Source: Alistipes putredinis (GTDB taxonomy: Bacteria; Bacteroidota; Bacteroidia; Bacteroidales; Bacteroidaceae). Taken from it: a DNA stretch of 64,000 nucleotides. This document shows positions 3,351-54,334 of this stretch, one piece after another. The translations under genes were made by a program, and so were the position numbers. The notes beneath the pieces were generated by a model, which saw nothing but the letters and a program-made list of their open reading frames with translations, was not told the DNA's origin and made no database searches. Numbering within the stretch: position 1 is the first letter of the stretch; the number at the start of each line of letters is the position of its first letter. The DNA lies in the NCBI GenBank assembly GCA_963602765.1, contig CAVCKM010000094.1:1479-65478 (forward strand), read 5' to 3'.

Positions 3351-4319
3351 ATGGAACTAAAAGGAACTTACGTAGCTGACGCACAGCGGTATGCTGATGC
3401 GCAGGTGCTTTACAAGCGTTGCGGCAGGAGCGGTGTCCTGTTGCCAAAGATAAGCTTGGGCTTCTGGCACAATTTCGGTGGCGTGGACACGTACGAGCGT
3501 GCACGCGAGATAACCCATTATGCTTTCGACCACGGCATCACTCATTTTGACCTTGCCAACAACTACGGTCCGCCGTACGGCAGTGCGGAGGAGACAATGG
3601 GCAGACTCATGGACGATGACTTCCGTCCGTATCGTGACGAGTTGTTCATCTCCACGAAGGCAGGCTACGACATGTGGGAGGGTCCTTATGGCAACTGGGG
3701 CTCGAGGAAGTACCTCATGGCGAGTCTTGACCAGAGTCTCAAGCGTATGCACCTGGACTATGTAGACCTCTTCTACAGCCATCGCTACGACCCTGAGACA
3801 CCGTTGGAGGAGACCCTTCAGGCAATGGTGGACATCGTGAAGCAGGGCAAGGCTCTCTATGTAGGCATCAGTAGATGGCCGTTGAAGGCATTGCAGTTTG
3901 CCGACAAATACCTTCGTGCGCATGATGTCCCGCTACTTATATATCAAGGGAGGCTCAACCTCCTTGACCGTGCTCCGCAGGAAGAGGGAATCTTGGACTA
4001 TTGTGCCGGGCACGGCATCGGGTTCATCTCCTTCTCGCCCTTGGCGCAGGGACTGCTGACCGACCGCTATCTGCACGGCATACCGTCGGACAGCCGTATG
4101 GCACGCGAGCATTTCCTGAAGCATTCCGCGCTGACACCAGAGTTGTTGCAGTACATCCAGTCGCTGAACGTCGAAGCGGCATCATACAATATGACTCTTG
4201 CGGAAATGGCACTTACATGGGTGCTCCAGCAGAAGGGCGTGACGTCGGTACTTGTAGGTGCCAGCTCGGCCACACAGTTGGCAAAGAATCTTCGTTGCGT
4301 CTACCACGGGAATGAATAG
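3351..4319 (+). CDS. Aldo/keto reductase, YghZ/Gpr-like (L-glyceraldehyde-3-phosphate reductase family)
   Basis: GITHFDLANNYGPPYGSAEETMGRL and SHRYDPETPLEET closely resemble E. coli YghZ. Start taken at ATG 3351, downstream of the -7 box. Confidence 0.85.
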   Translation: MELKGTYVADAQRYADAQVLYKRCGRSGVLLPKISLGFWHNFGGVDTYERAREITHYAFDHGITHFDLANNYGPPYGSAEETMGRLMDDDFRPYRDELFISTKAGYDMWEGPYGNWGSRKYLMASLDQSLKRMHLDYVDLFYSHRYDPETPLEETLQAMVDIVKQGKALYVGISRWPLKALQFADKYLRAHDVPLLIYQGRLNLLDRAPQEEGILDYCAGHGIGFISFSPLAQGLLTDRYLHGIPSDSRMAREHFLKHSALTPELLQYIQSLNVEAASYNMTLAEMALTWVLQQKGVTSVLVGASSATQLAKNLRCVYHGNE

Positions 4320-6117: not shown

Positions 6118-7464
6118 TCAATCTCTGAATGTCAGTCGTTGACCGCGTACGTCGTTGTGGAAGTCGCCGTTGTCGTAGACCAGTTGTCCGCTGACGAAGG
6201 TTTGCATCACCCTCCAATGCAGCTGCATGCCTTCCATGGGACTCCAGTTGCATTTGCTTTGTATGTCGTCCTTCGTAATGGTCCATGGAGTGTCTGAGTG
6301 TCGCACAATGGCAATGTCGGCCTTGTAGCCTTTACGCAGAAAGCCGCGTTTGTTTACGGAGAACAGTGTAGCGGGATTGTGTGCCATGAGTCGTACGAGT
6401 TGCTCGATGGAGAGCACCCCCTGACTTACCAGTTCCATCATGCACGGCAGGGCGTACTGCACCGAAGGCATTCCCGACATGGCTTTTGCCGCACCGCCCA
6501 GTTTTTCTTCTATAGCGTGCGGGGCATGGTCTGTGCCAATGGTACAGACGGGCGACTCTTGTGCGATGGCTTTTCGGAGAGCCGTGCGGTCGTCGGCACA
6601 CTTTATGGCAGGGTTACACTTGATTAGTGCGCCGAGCGTGCGGTAGTCGTCGTCGCAGAAGGTGAGGTGAGCGACGGTGGCTTCTCCTGTGACGAGCGTA
6701 TTGTTTTGTTCCTGAAGCAGGCGCACTTCCTCTTCGGTGCTGATGTGTGCTATGTGCAGTCGGGTGTTGTGCTTCTGTGCCAGTTGGAGAGCGAGTGTAC
6801 TGCTCTTTATGCAGGCTTCTCGTGAGCGGATTTGTGGGTGCAACGTGACGTCCGGGTCGTCCGTATGCTGCTCCTCCTTTATCCGTGCCATGTTGTCGTT
6901 GATGGTCTCCGTGTCCTCGCAGTGTGCCATGAGTGGCAGTTGTCGGTCGTGTGCCAGTTGGAAGATGCTGTCGAGTGCCTGTCCCTTGTCTACGAGCATG
7001 TTGCCAGTGCTGGAACCCATGAAGAGTTTGATGCCAGGGATGTCGTGTGCGTCAAGCGAACGTAGGAACTCGATGTTGTCGTTTGTGGCACCGGGGAAGA
7101 AGGTGTAGTTGACGTGCATCTTCTCCTGTGCGATGCGGTGCTTCTCCGCAAGAGCGTCGGCATCGGTGGTTTGGGGCTTGGTGTTTGGCATTTCGAACAC
7201 GGTGGTGACTCCGCCGTATGCAGCAGCCCTGCTTTCTGTCTCCATGTCCGCCTTGTGGGTTAGCCCGGGTTCACGGAAGTGTACGTGTGTATCGATGATG
7301 CCAGGCAGTACGCAGCAGTCCGTTGCGTCTACAATACGGTCGAAATCAGTGTCGCGGAATTCTTCTGTCGAGATGTCCGCTATAGTGTCGTCCTCAATGA
7401 CGATGTTTTGCTTGGTCTTGATGCCTTCGTTGACGGTGTAGCCGCCTTTTATAAGTGTACGCAT
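6118..7464 (-). CDS. pyrC: Dihydroorotase (amidohydrolase superfamily)
   Basis: DTHVHFREPG metal-binding motif. Length and layout match long-type dihydroorotase/allantoinase-family enzymes. Confidence 0.8.
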   Translation of the reverse strand: MRTLIKGGYTVNEGIKTKQNIVIEDDTIADISTEEFRDTDFDRIVDATDCCVLPGIIDTHVHFREPGLTHKADMETESRAAAYGGVTTVFEMPNTKPQTTDADALAEKHRIAQEKMHVNYTFFPGATNDNIEFLRSLDAHDIPGIKLFMGSSTGNMLVDKGQALDSIFQLAHDRQLPLMAHCEDTETINDNMARIKEEQHTDDPDVTLHPQIRSREACIKSSTLALQLAQKHNTRLHIAHISTEEEVRLLQEQNNTLVTGEATVAHLTFCDDDYRTLGALIKCNPAIKCADDRTALRKAIAQESPVCTIGTDHAPHAIEEKLGGAAKAMSGMPSVQYALPCMMELVSQGVLSIEQLVRLMAHNPATLFSVNKRGFLRKGYKADIAIVRHSDTPWTITKDDIQSKCNWSPMEGMQLHWRVMQTFVSGQLVYDNGDFHNDVRGQRLTFRD

Positions 7465-51029: not shown

Positions 51030-52193
51030 TTAGTAGTTGAACTCTCCGAATTCGCTCTTTATGGTGAGCGACTTCTCGCCCTCTTCGATGCGTCCGATTA
51101 TCTGTGCGTCGATGTTGAAGCTCTTGCTGATGGCGATGACCTTTTCGGCCTGCTCGGGTGAGACGTATATTTCCATGCGGTGACCCATGTTGAATACCTT
51201 GTACATCTCCTTCCAGTCGGTGCCGCTCTGGTCGTGTATGAGTTTGAAGAGCGGCGGTACGGGGAACATGTTGTCCTTGATGACGCGGCAGTTGTCGCTG
51301 ACGAAGTGTAGCACCTTTGTCTGTGCTCCTCCGGTGCAGTGTACCATGCCGTGAATCTCGGGGCGCATCTCGTCGAGCATCTTCTTGATGACCGGTGCGT
51401 AGGTACGGGTGGGGGAGAGGACGAGTTTTCCTGCGTTGACGGGTGCTCCCTCCACGGTGTCCTCGAAGCGGCATTTTCCGGAGTAGACCAGTTCGTCGGG
51501 CACGGCGTGGTCGTAGCTTTCGGGGTATTTCTCGGCGTAGTATTTGGAGAACACGTCGTGGCGTGCAGAGGTGAGTCCGTTGCTGCCCATACCTCCGTTG
51601 TACTCTTTCTCGTACGTGGCCTGTCCGCAGCTGGAGAGACCTACGATGACGTCTCCCGGGCGTATGTTGGCATTGTCGATGACGTCGCCTCGTTTCATGC
51701 GGCAGGTGACGGTGGAGTCGACGATGATGGTACGGGCCAGGTCGCCCACGTCAGCCGTTTCGCCTCCTGTGGCGTATATGCCGACTCCCATTTGGCGCAT
51801 CTCGGCGAGCAGTTCGTCTGTGCCGTTGATGATGGCGGAGATGACGTCTCCTGGTACGAGCATTTTGTTTCTGCCGATGGTGCTAGAGACGAGGATGTTG
51901 TCCACGGCTCCGACGCAGAGCAGGTCGTCCGTGTTCATGATGAGGGCATCCTGTGCGATGCCTTTCCAAACGGAGAGGTCGCCCGTCTCTTTCCAGTACA
52001 TATATGCGAGGCTTGACTTGGTGCCGGCTCCGTCTGCGTGCATGATGTTGCAGTACTCGGGGTCTCCTCCGAGTATGTCGGGTATAATCTTACAGAAAGC
52101 CTGTGGGAAGATACCCTTATCGATGTTCTTGATGGCGTTGTGCACGTCTTCTTTCGCGGCGCTTACTCCACGAAGCATGTATCTGTTGTCCAT
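51030..52193 (-). CDS. purM: AIR synthase-related protein (phosphoribosylformylglycinamidine cyclo-ligase-like)
   Basis: PurM-type N- and C-domains (HADGAGTKS, DDLLCVGA, GHRMEI). Start taken at ATG 52193 (MDNRYMLRGVS). Confidence 0.8.
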   Translation of the reverse strand: MDNRYMLRGVSAAKEDVHNAIKNIDKGIFPQAFCKIIPDILGGDPEYCNIMHADGAGTKSSLAYMYWKETGDLSVWKGIAQDALIMNTDDLLCVGAVDNILVSSTIGRNKMLVPGDVISAIINGTDELLAEMRQMGVGIYATGGETADVGDLARTIIVDSTVTCRMKRGDVIDNANIRPGDVIVGLSSCGQATYEKEYNGGMGSNGLTSARHDVFSKYYAEKYPESYDHAVPDELVYSGKCRFEDTVEGAPVNAGKLVLSPTRTYAPVIKKMLDEMRPEIHGMVHCTGGAQTKVLHFVSDNCRVIKDNMFPVPPLFKLIHDQSGTDWKEMYKVFNMGHRMEIYVSPEQAEKVIAISKSFNIDAQIIGRIEEGEKSLTIKSEFGEFNY

Positions 52194-52246
52194 TGGTCGT
52201 GTATTACGTTTTTGGGTGTTTAATGTTCTGTGTGTATAGTTTCGGT

Positions 52247-52254
52247 GCAAAGTT
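52247..52254 (-). promoter_or_regulatory. Bacteroidota-type -7 box (TAACTTTG) for the purM-like gene
   Basis: Plus-strand CAAAGTTA, 54 nt upstream of ATG 52193 and outside the inverted-repeat-bounded cassette. Confidence 0.4.
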
Positions 52255-52335
52255 ACGGAAAATATTTAAGACTGCCAAAAATATACAATTCATAATTCGG
52301 CTCAACAGATTTTTCCTGTGGCAGCATATAAGCCC

Positions 52336-52358
52336 AAAAGTATCATCAAAGTATCATC
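52336..52358. repeat. Two tandem AAAGTATCATC units (inverse orientation of the right-hand ATGATACTT array)
   Basis: AAAAGTATCATC at 52336-52347 and AAAGTATCATC at 52348-52358, starting 3 nt inside IR-L. CAAAAGTA (52335-52342) reads TACTTTTG on the - strand, which is an exact TAnnTTTG. Confidence 0.85.
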
Positions 52359-52386
52359 TCTCCGTGTCCTTTTGTACCGCTGAGAT

Positions 52387-52474
52387 GCCCGCGGCTTGGG
52401 CATCGTGTGCCCACGGCTTGAGAATCGTGTGCCCGCGGCTTGAGCATCGTGTGCCCGCGGCTCGGGCATCTAGC
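52387..52474. repeat. Four tandem copies of a GC-rich 22-bp unit (GCCCGCGGCTTGGGCATCGTGT)
   Basis: Units at 52387-52408, 52409-52430, 52431-52452 and 52453-52474. They are contiguous with no spacers. Confidence 0.9.
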
Positions 52475-52587
52475 GTCCTCCAAGTGGGGAAGTACTAGGG
52501 ACTTAGCAAATGGATAGACACTACCTGTCGGTGTTGTCCAGGTGATGAGACATAGCCCCGAAAGTCTTTTGGCTAAAACAGACTTAG

Positions 52588-52631
52588 ATGATACTTTTAT
52601 GATACTTTGATGATACTTCTATGATACTTTT
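52588..52631. repeat. Four tandem 11-bp units with an ATGATACTT core
   Basis: Cores at 52588, 52599, 52610 and 52621, an exact 11-bp period. Extra solitary GATACTTT copies lie at 52711-52718 and 52764-52771. Confidence 0.9.
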
Positions 52632-52855
52632 TACAGAAAAGCACAAAAGATACACTTGTTTTATGTCGCTGTAGATCAGGGCAATACGGCACACACAAAA
52701 GCTCAGAAGTGATACTTTGAGACTTTTTCGATAAAAAAACTTTTTTGCACAATGTAGCCCGGCGATACTTTTATACGATGGAGTCAAGGCGACAGTCCAC
52801 ATTTCACTTCTATGCTGCCACAGGAAATATCCGTTGAGCCTACTTTGCCATGTTT

Positions 52856-54334
52856 TTATGCGTGTCTTTTCAGCACGATGCTGTCGGTGATGCATGGGGG
52901 GAGTGCCTCCTTGTAGTGGGTGACCATGATGAGGGTCTTGTTGCGGCGCTGGCAGAAGGTGTTGATGATTTCCTTTACCATTTCGCCGTGCGGGGCGTCG
53001 AGGCCGTGGAGGGGCTCGTCGAGGATGAGCAGCTCGGGGTCTTTGACGAAGGCGCGGGCAAGGAGCACTAGGCGCTGCTCGCCGCTGGAGAGCTTGAGGA
53101 AGGTGCGGTCGGCAAGGCTCTCGATGCCGAAGAAGCGCATCCACATGCGGCAGACGTCGTAGTCCTTTTCTGAGGGCTTGACGTAGAGGCCTACGGAGTC
53201 TTTCAGTCCGGAGGCCACGATGCGTATGGCGGGCATGTCGCGGTTGTAGGCGCGGTGCATCTCGGGGGAGACGTAGCCGATGTGCTTCTTGATGTCCCAG
53301 ATGCTTTCGCCGTGTCCGCGCTGCTGGTCGAAGAGGACGATGTCGCAGGCGTAGCTCTGGGGGTTGTCGGCGCAGACGAGGCTGAGCAGGGTTGACTTTC
53401 CGGCGCCGTTCTGGCCGGAGAGTGCCCACTTCTCGCCGTTGCAGACGGTCCAGTCGAGGTCCTGCAGTATGGTGCGTGTGCCGTAGCGTATCGAGACCTT
53501 GTTCATGCGCACCACCTCGTGGGTGTTGTAGTCGTCGTTGCGGTAGGGGAGGTTGAGGATTTCCTGCTTGACAGCTTCGCTGAGGAAGGGGGGAGCGACG
53601 TGCTCGGTTTGTGCCATGTATTCGGAGCGAGTTACCTTTGGCAGTACCTTCATGTCCCTTACGGGCACTACGTGTGTGATGAACTTGGGGATGTCCTCGT
53701 CCTTTGCCAGTACGAGTATTATCTGGAGGGCGCGTTCGGCACTCATTATCTCGAGCACCTCGCGCAGCTGCTGGCGTGTCTCCTTGTCGAGTCCGATGAA
53801 GGGGTTGTCCATGATGAGCACGCGGGGGTCTGCCATGAGTGCCTTACAGAGCTGCAGCTTGCGCAGTTCGCCGCTGGAGAGGAGTATGATGTATTTGTCG
53901 AGCAGGTAGCGCAGGTTGAAGACGTCGTAGAGGTGCTCCTTGAAGGTCTGGCGCTCGGGGGTGTCGTCGCCGTTGCGCAGGTATTCGTCCTCGAGGAGCT
54001 TGCCCACGGTGGGTGTGGAGCTGTCTATCTCGGTCTGGTTCCAGCGTTGCTGAAGGTAGTAGGTCTTGTCGTTGTCGCCTCCGTAGGTGTCGCGGAAGGT
54101 GATGTGCTTGATGTTGTCCGAGGCGAGTCTGGACTTCTTTGGCGAGAAGTCGTAGACGGCGTCTGGAGCGAGGAGTGGGTGGGCTCCTGTAATGATGTCC
54201 ACGAGCATGGACTTGCCTGCGGCGTTGGGGCCTACGATGGCGATGTGTTCTTTGTCGTCGAGTTCGAAGTGTACGGGTTCTGCCATACGCCAGGCGGGCA
54301 TACGGGTGACGCCGTGTTCTATCCTGATAATCAT
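52856..54334 (-). CDS. Soluble double-ATPase ABC protein (ModF-like), no transmembrane domain
   Basis: Two Walker A sites ([17 protein letters not shown]) and two signature/Walker B sets ([13 protein letters not shown]; [17 protein letters not shown]). Confidence 0.8.

Follow-up and report, generated by a model that had tools for sequence, protein, structure and literature searches.

The 64,000-nt stretch analysed here (contig CAVCKM010000094.1; called the window throughout) carries a repeat-rich cassette between purM and a gene for a double ATP-binding cassette (ABC) ATPase, and we consider it probable that this cassette is the gene-less relic, about 518 bp long, of a small Bacteroidales mobile element, situated at the apex of the terminator hairpin of the ABC gene. 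The corresponding element family is recognised by inverted end modules of about 170 nt around a DUF6078 gene and a primase-helicase gene (form A); neither gene is in the cassette, which is therefore gene-less and resembles the short derivatives of the family (form B). The window copy retains one whole module, two to three units of the second module and a 4×22-bp version of the family's spacer repeats, all inside private terminal inverted repeats (TIRs) of 21 bp. Its parts are listed below in window coordinates, with a strand where one applies.

52299–52310: purM-side arm, most likely of the ABC terminator hairpin, GGCTCAACAGAT; outer 12 bp of the purM-side inverted-repeat arm (IR-L)
52311–52332, plus strand: TIR_B, the purM-side terminal inverted repeat TTTTCCTGTGGCAGCATATAAG, identical in all conspecific copies
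52337–52358, minus strand: two 11-bp units GATGATACTTT, opposite to the main array, with a weak nhmmer match to the module
52386–52473: four 22-bp tandem repeats, each a TGCCC-N7-GGGCA mini-palindrome
52474–52575: central non-repetitive stretch, nearly invariant among conspecific copies
52576–52744, plus strand: complete end module of about 170 nt, found with an nhmmer model from other contigs
52588–52630: 4×11-bp ATGATACTT array, part of the end module
52745–52806: stretch from the module to the ABC-side TIR, including a solitary GATACTTTTAT at 52764
52807–52828, minus strand: TIR_A, the ABC-side terminal inverted repeat; reverse complement ATTTCCTGTGGCAGCATAGAAG
52829–52840: matching ABC-side hairpin arm, ATCCGTTGAGCC; the 12 outermost bp of the ABC-side inverted-repeat arm (IR-R), compared with the sister-clade loci L107–L114

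The evidence that carries this reading is the homology of the cassette interior. An IMG/VR scan for two adjacent 9-mers returned three contigs sharing far more than the motif, and a second motif scan, together with relatives of the primase encoded nearby, added further contexts. The module that these contexts define is about 170 nt long and consists of direct ATGA(T/G)ACTT 9-mers at 11-bp phasing, one inverted unit, a TATCAG box, AATGAKACTTTGAKAC and a T-run/A-run hairpin; the window follows this order with four direct ATGATACTT units, one degenerate inverted unit, a TATCAG-like box, GTGATACTTTGAGACTTTTT and the T-run/A-run hairpin. In a leave-one-out nhmmer search, with a model built from four modules of other contigs, window positions 52576–52744 matched model positions 4–173 of 176 (E = 2.9e-21, 75.5 bits). 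On the purM side, 52337–52358 gave a weak match to module positions 37–72 (E = 0.005–0.009) and is, judging from this similarity, probably a truncated second end module, ending 4 nt before TIR_B. The window module is 58–62% identical to left-type and right-type modules alike, so that its assignment to either type is ambiguous.

The block of 22-bp repeats is likewise related to the family, aligning with the DUF6078-primase spacers of two form A loci (L126 and L157; 70–73% identity over 64–74 nt, E = 1.5e-4). Strict TGCCC-N(4-10)-GGGCA pairs have a spacing of exactly 66 nt in the window (at 52386 and 52452), in L121 and in L148; such palindromes are clustered nowhere else in 1.49 Mb (background 0.02 per kb). 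The central stretch (52474–52575) showed no similarity in the sequences searched, including the IMG/VR scan (0 matches).

These comparisons rest on a repeat inventory first drawn up in an initial annotation of this DNA, every item of which was recovered in its place. The inverted-repeat arms (52299–52332 and 52807–52840) match at 31 of 34 positions around a perfect 17-bp core, TTTCCTGTGGCAGCATA, and a repeat search lengthens them to 39 nt at 87% identity; the core occurs at two sites only in the window, both in the arms, where 0.01 would be expected by chance. The two inverse units (AAAGTATCATC twice at 52337–52358), the 4×22-bp and 4×11-bp arrays and the two solitary GATACTTT copies (starting at 52711 and 52764) are all present, and 7 of the 11 matches to the GATACTTT motif in the window, where 1.5 would be expected, fall inside the cassette. 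No open reading frame (ORF) was found in the cassette, in agreement with its description as non-coding and non-autonomous. The likeness of the subterminal short repeats to transposon ends was also borne out, since arrays of this kind make up the inverted end modules in an actual family of mobile elements.

Form A of this family, about 3 kb long, was found in L126, L157–L162 and L167 and has the order inverted end module, DUF6078, a spacer of about 280 nt, primase-helicase gene and second end module. The first module lies about 75 nt upstream of DUF6078 in all eight loci, the second begins at the primase stop codon (L126, L158–L162 and L167, not L157), and in L163–L166 the primase-side module only was seen. 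The spacer contains 22-nt tandem repeats and a TGCCCG-N5-CGGGCA palindrome; the large gene combines a BT4734-like archaeo-eukaryotic primase (AEP) N domain, a VapE helicase and DUF3874, and its product is the one enzyme that can be recognised in the element. Two modules within one element are 63–68% identical. The flanks of form A vary, comprising lactate permease, GH3 and AAA-ATPase/PDDEXK_9 genes and an IS66 insertion. Form B, about 0.6 kb long and gene-less, is represented by L148 and by L121 and L129, the latter two both interrupted by an IS66-family element; it keeps the modules and the spacer repeats but has lost both genes. The centre of L148 shares homology with two parts of form A, the spacer between DUF6078 and primase in L158 (77% identity over 108 nt, E = 7e-20) and the 3′ end of the primase gene (83% identity over 48 nt), and form B is therefore an internal-deletion derivative of form A. 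The primase family is large: its homologues in the protein collection number in the thousands, the 90%-identity clusters include some with up to 15,867 member sequences, and BT4734-like proteins belong to an AEP primase family associated with mobile elements (PMC5862659). DUF6078 had no match in NCBIfam or PDB sequence searches, and the L129 unit had no Rfam match of note.

Several further observations concern the surroundings of these elements. Many primase-carrying contigs (protein matches P0255–P0374) are 3.9–4.0 kb long, which suggests a highly repeated or small circular unit. The IS66-family element (inverted repeat GTAAGCGGCTCCGC..., orf1 and TnpB_IS66) abuts or interrupts the 9-mer arrays at L121:11192-11312, L129:31-95 and L157:~3755-3906, at the same relative position after ATGAKACTTCYATG in the three contigs; a target preference or a shared ancestral insertion is possible. 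As a parent of the cassette it was rejected, its inverted repeat (GTAAGCGG...) being unrelated and its copies being inserted into the arrays instead of bounding them. A tie between the module and the neighbouring gene for an XRE/HipB-like helix-turn-helix (HTH) protein (a HipB-type antitoxin gene that adjoins the module in two contigs) was rejected as well, ten other contexts of that gene being module-free. Equally, the arrays are unsupported as attP-like, arm-type sites of the L148 tyrosine integrase, as form A is integrase-free and the module orientation is unlike attL/attR geometry. Between that integrase gene and the gene-less unit, L148:3710-3799 has a weak Rfam match to BTnc231, a Bacteroides sRNA (29.7 bits versus a gathering score of 80.4). 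In the viral contigs L122, L125, L131 and L132 (for example L122:4298-4362), 2+2 direct GTATGATACTT units lie about 45 nt apart, with the same core 9-mer in an unrelated setting, and the Prevotella loci L134 and L136 (~6690-6770) carry three to four 22-nt tandem repeats ATTTCCGYAGTTGGCGCGATTTT upstream of hipB-hipA, beside an AAA_14/DUF4143 gene.

The history of the insertion was read from related loci, for which conspecific contigs were fetched via the 90%-identity cluster of the ABC protein. The purM and ABC proteins of the window are also encoded on CAVDRV010000184.1 (metagenome-assembled genome (MAG) GCA_963611505.1), with an intergenic region that is 100% identical to that of the window, and purM finds its closest matches in Prevotella MAGs. 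At the same locus, L001/L117, L115, L116, L119 and, partly, L120 carry the cassette (95–100% identity; about 95% for the L115, L116, L119 and L120 copies), and its orientation is identical in six contigs from at least five samples. Three inverted 9-mer units are found in L115, L116 and L119 versus two in the window, and the TIR_A core of these three loci and of L120 reads TTTCCCAGGGCAGCATA, a 3-nt change that is uncompensated in TIR_B. Among 80 related purM loci from species-representative genomes, none has any part of the cassette, and the ABC-purM order recurs in L025 only, with a gap of about 230 bp.

Cassette-free junctions are found in two sister lineages, so that the cassette is an indel and, as first proposed, foreign to the locus; the opposing expectation, that all relatives carry it and no empty sites exist, does not hold. 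In the sister clade L107–L114 (91.5–92% nucleotide identity in the ABC gene) an insert-free hairpin, GGGTCAACGGAT[T/A]ATCCGTTGACCC, is found, the palindrome (...CAAAGGGTCAACGGAT[T/A]ATCCGTTGACCCTTTG...) being perfect over 28 bp at the ABC stop codon and followed by AATTTTT. The inner 12 bp of each palindrome arm equal the outer 12 bp of the window inverted repeat, at the homologous distance from the ABC stop, and in the window itself 52299–52310 is complementary to 52829–52840 except for one G/A difference. In the outgroup L106 (ABC 84%) the gap is 145 bp long, its hairpin differs and the purM promoter is the same. The 34-bp inverted repeats initially taken as the ends of the element thus exist as described, but their outer 12 bp are most likely host hairpin. 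Because these outer 12 bp correspond to the arms of the cassette-free hairpin, the simplest reading of the alignment places the cassette proper at 52311–52828, about 518 bp (516–518), with private 21-bp TIRs. The simplest reading of its origin would be a single insertion at the tip of a pre-existing terminator hairpin, GGCTCAACGGAT-loop-ATCCGTTGAGCC, in the ancestor of one Prevotella species-level clade (at least 96% ABC identity). The flanks of the 34-bp repeats (CATAATTC and TACTTTGC) show no target-site duplication, as had been noted, and with the 21-bp TIRs the duplication is at most 1 nt (A/T), which the palindromic target leaves ambiguous.

Divergence between strains was measured on the window region 52193–52855 against L115, together with the four-fold sites of the flanking genes. 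Divergence is 3.3% in the cassette, 3.5% at the four-fold sites of purM and 11.7% at those of the ABC gene; because the cassette value lies within the range of the flanking genes' four-fold sites, it fits long vertical inheritance, and by itself it is no proof of constraint. Most cassette substitutions (14 of 18) fall in the ABC-side half. This skew and the threefold gap in four-fold divergence between the ABC gene and purM suggest a recombination breakpoint in or near the cassette.

Other features of these junctions were recorded alongside. The centre nucleotide of the sister-clade palindrome (for example L107:3974-4030) is T in five contigs and A in three, and the palindrome straddling the ABC stop, together with the new junction there, looks like a fold-back or repair event at a hairpin. 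L104, L105 and L118 form a sub-lineage nested in the cassette-bearing clade with wholly different sequence 3′ of the ABC stop, including a hairpin (AATTGCCGTCCGGAC...GTCCGGACGGCAATT) and CTATGATC repeats; these contigs end 73–267 nt downstream, as if a repeat were present there. L120:2099-2256 tracks the cassette for about 150 nt and continues into unrelated sequence and the contig end, possibly reflecting an assembly artefact or strain heterogeneity. The ABC-purM gap of L025 (2041–2145) holds an unrelated 3×35-bp tandem repeat with a GC-rich mini-hairpin, TCGCGCTTCGCGC. Upstream of purM in L024, the closest species representative (purM 96%), positions 3417–3587 carry opposed arrays of 8-bp units (GACAATAAG and CTTAATGTC) 103 nt apart, an architecture like that of the cassette in a sequence unlike it.

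On the reading as a mobile-element relic, the unit would have entered the pre-existing hairpin in the ancestor of the clade and would have been inherited vertically after entry. The 9-mer and 22-mer arrays would be putative binding sites for the parent element's own proteins, by analogy either iteron- or origin-type sites for the primase-helicase or end-recognition sites. As no family gene was found in the 64-kb window, the copy there is probably inert apart from side effects, which may comprise an ABC terminator lengthened internally by 518 nt and at most some weak promoter activity directed outward. The genes flanking the insertion are those first described, and the associated features are as follows.

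51030–52193, minus strand: purM (aminoimidazole ribonucleotide (AIR) synthase; PF00586, PF02769), the downstream neighbour
52248–52279, minus strand: purM promoter of the Bacteroidetes type, TTTG-N20-TAACTTTG, outside the cassette
52856–54334, minus strand: double ABC-ATPase, ModF-like, 492 aa; stop included at 52856, terminator hairpin split by the cassette

The purM −7 box noted earlier is present, but its coordinates were one base off (52248–52255).

A number of points weigh against this reading. Searches of the window, of the roughly 1.5 Mb of fetched loci, of IMG/VR and of JGI metagenomes turned up no second copy of the cassette, and the 21-bp TIRs and the 62 nt beside TIR_A have no relative in the sequences searched. 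The other family members lack these TIRs, and the window unit is an incomplete form B, one module being down to two to three units. No target duplication was found. In form A no integrase or transposase was identified, its mobility being read from differing flanks only, and protein binding to the arrays is a candidate function. The polarity of the insertion is a parsimony argument from three lineages, one of which, the sister clade, has a rearranged junction with a radical SAM gene instead of purM. Finally, the cassette divergence is below that of the ABC four-fold sites, which could reflect some constraint or simply a recombination mosaic.

The searches for copies, parents and enzymes gave little else. 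An exact scan for the inverted repeats in species-representative genomes and JGI metagenomes gave 0 matches with a pattern that included the host-hairpin GAT, so that only this locus could have matched; a TIR-only scan of JGI metagenomes gave 0 matches. The 17-mer core had 22 matches in IMG/VR, in a few sets of near-identical contexts within unrelated coding genes, with nothing shared beyond the core, and the stretch 52745–52806 had 0 matches in the IMG/VR scan. Neither the cassette nor the L129 unit had a blastn match in phage and plasmid collections. No parent insertion sequence (IS) with these TIRs was matched in the collections or by literature string search, and literature string searches with the TIR and the 9-mer returned irrelevant primer matches only. 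With tblastn, queries for a tyrosine integrase, IS66 orf1 and orf2, the family primase, DUF6078 and its neighbouring 96-aa ORF, and the HTH protein found nothing in the window; other recombinases were not exhaustively scanned.

The alternative that survives best is an IS-derived MITE (miniature inverted-repeat transposable element), in which a DDE transposase with its gene at another place in the genome would recognise the 21-bp (or 34-bp) ends and the short repeats would be extra transposase-binding sites or a passenger fragment from a primase-encoding element; we regard it as possible, though unlikely. The TIRs with their 17-bp perfect core unique in the window, the small size without coding capacity and the clean-edged presence/absence polymorphism between clades all suit such an element, and an incomplete form B inside TIRs is compatible with a passenger fragment. 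Bacteroidales precedents with internal tandem repeats exist in BrickBuilt and MITEPgRS (PMC4596501). The target-site duplication of 1 nt at most speaks against a MITE, as do the failure to find an IS with these ends, the three uncompensated TIR_A changes in four strains and the one copy found across the window, the fetched loci, IMG/VR and JGI metagenomes, a search that did not cover the complete source genome. Of the initial transposon or MITE proposal, the foreign, non-autonomous indel thus stands, but neither a target duplication nor a second copy nor a parent IS came to light.

Near-precise excision remnants are known from Tn10, and the sister-clade hairpin can be viewed in the same way: the true ends would be the full 34-bp repeats, the 12+1+12 hairpin would be what a near-precise excision left behind, and the cassette would be ancestral to both clades. 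In its favour, the sister hairpin is exactly the outer 12 bp of both arms placed head to head, and the rearranged sister junction, with its palindrome perfect to 28 bp across the ABC stop, suggests repair or fold-back. We find this history doubtful: it takes two events, a gain and a loss, versus one insertion; the outgroup L106 has neither the cassette nor any TIR-like sequence; the hairpin lies where an intrinsic terminator is expected, with AATTTTT following in the sister clade; and the joint GAT+TIR sequence was not found elsewhere in the scans of species-representative genomes and JGI metagenomes.

That the cassette is an invertible promoter upstream of purM, flipped by a recombinase encoded elsewhere so that its TACTTTTG box drives purM, is very improbable, and this alternative, raised initially, is not upheld. 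Inverted repeats do surround about 0.5 kb, some Bacteroidales invertases act in trans, and one TAnnTTTG box was confirmed at 52335–52342 (minus strand), 3 nt inside the purM-side repeat and facing purM. Nevertheless, one orientation only occurs in the window, L001/L117, L115, L116, L119 and L120, and in four strains the two repeat arms have lost part of their complementarity. A single box in 518 bp is the chance rate (0.58 per kb), and it has no −33 TTTG at 17–23 nt. In addition, purM has its own full promoter, kept where the cassette is absent (L106 and L024), the interior is homologous to mobile-element ends and not to known switch regions, and a housekeeping purine gene is an unlikely target of phase variation. 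The remaining suggestion, a host structured spacer or small RNA gene of the ABC-purM locus, is hardly credible: it would draw on the strong predicted folding of both strands (z = −6.2 and −6.9) and on the low divergence of the purM-side half, but such folding is trivial, because any sequence with these inverted repeats and arrays would fold, no Rfam 15 family matched at E ≤ 1 (window 51500–53500), and the cassette is absent from the sister lineages and the 80 related purM loci.

Among known systems, the relic that we favour is closest in setting to BrickBuilt and MITEPgRS/MITE464 of Porphyromonas gingivalis (PMC4596501), which are likewise Bacteroidales units of 0.1–1 kb, strictly intergenic and non-coding. 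In those, as described by Klein et al. 2015 (PMC4596501), short TIRs enclose a leader, a tail and an internal array with a tandem unit of 23 or 41 nt; they are sited between housekeeping genes, outward promoter activity has been reported, and with about 19 per genome and a 12-bp TIR of the IS5 type (GAGACC...TGCA, GAGACCTTTGCA) their parent IS can be named from the TIRs (PMC4596501). The cassette differs in its unrelated TIR (TTTCCTGTGGCAGCATA), its repeat sequences, the one copy found and an interior derived from a primase-encoding element. It resembles Bacteroidales invertible promoters only in outline. Those of the Mpi/fin and PhaseFinder inverton type have intergenic inverted repeats around a few hundred bp with TAnnTTTG inside; for the cassette no second orientation was seen in the six contigs and no adjacent recombinase was found with the proteins queried, its arms are decaying and its downstream gene has its own promoter. 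In cis-mobilizable elements (CIMEs) of the ICESt1/ICESt3 family, the boundaries are att sites in direct repeat, the substrates of a tyrosine integrase. Like them the cassette is a gene-less remnant that keeps end or recognition sequences and could in principle be acted on in trans, but it is enclosed by inverted repeats, and the family has no linked integrase.

The arrays themselves invite comparison with replication origins. In the origins of Staphylococcus aureus pathogenicity islands and phage-inducible chromosomal islands (SaPI/PICI), two iteron sets flank an AT-rich stretch just after pri-rep, and iteron plasmids have 7×22 bp (R6K gamma ori) or 4×22 bp (pPS10). The family likewise has arrays of short repeats phased to the DNA helix (11 and 22 bp), with one set on each side of an AT-rich spacer in opposite orientations, and in form A one module begins exactly at the primase-helicase stop codon; it differs in that the modules double as inverted unit boundaries, a role that origins do not usually have, and the 22-bp units are G+C-rich palindromes. 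The site of insertion recalls IS1397 and ISKpn1, which enter the loops of repetitive extragenic palindromic (REP) sequences, and IS110/IS1111 elements, which enter palindromes and attC sites. As with these, the insertion point of the cassette is the middle of a palindromic hairpin and the target is duplicated little or not at all, but they are autonomous, have known transposases and ends without 9-mer arrays, and no link to them was found.

Gene-less, non-autonomous derivatives of mobile elements are a known kind of thing, and the cassette is one of them. The DUF6078-primase family itself appears undescribed: no Rfam or NCBIfam entry was found, and the papers retrieved on DUF6078, BT4734 and DUF3874 contain no description of its ends, nor was one of its origin or movement found. 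More speculatively, and in our estimate improbably, the units of about 3 kb would be an undescribed, very abundant class of Bacteroidales elements that replicate and move without a classical integrase or transposase, with the AEP primase-VapE helicase as the sole recognisable enzyme and DUF6078 as a possible end-binding or recombination factor. If so, gene-less miniatures such as L148 and the window cassette would ride that machinery in trans, and the position at the apex of a hairpin would hint that integration is directed by hairpins or single strands. For the locus itself little hangs on the finding, since purM retains its promoter and the insert has the look of an old passenger that one Prevotella species has inherited vertically; the case also illustrates that what seems a long transposon inverted repeat can in part belong to the terminator hairpin of the host. 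Of wider value is the gut Bacteroidales family thereby revealed, in which inverted 9-mer modules of about 170 bp surround DUF6078 and an AEP-primase/helicase gene and from which gene-less derivatives arise, and whose 9-mer arrays at 11-bp phasing and 22-bp palindromes at 66-nt spacing are candidates for binding and replication assays.

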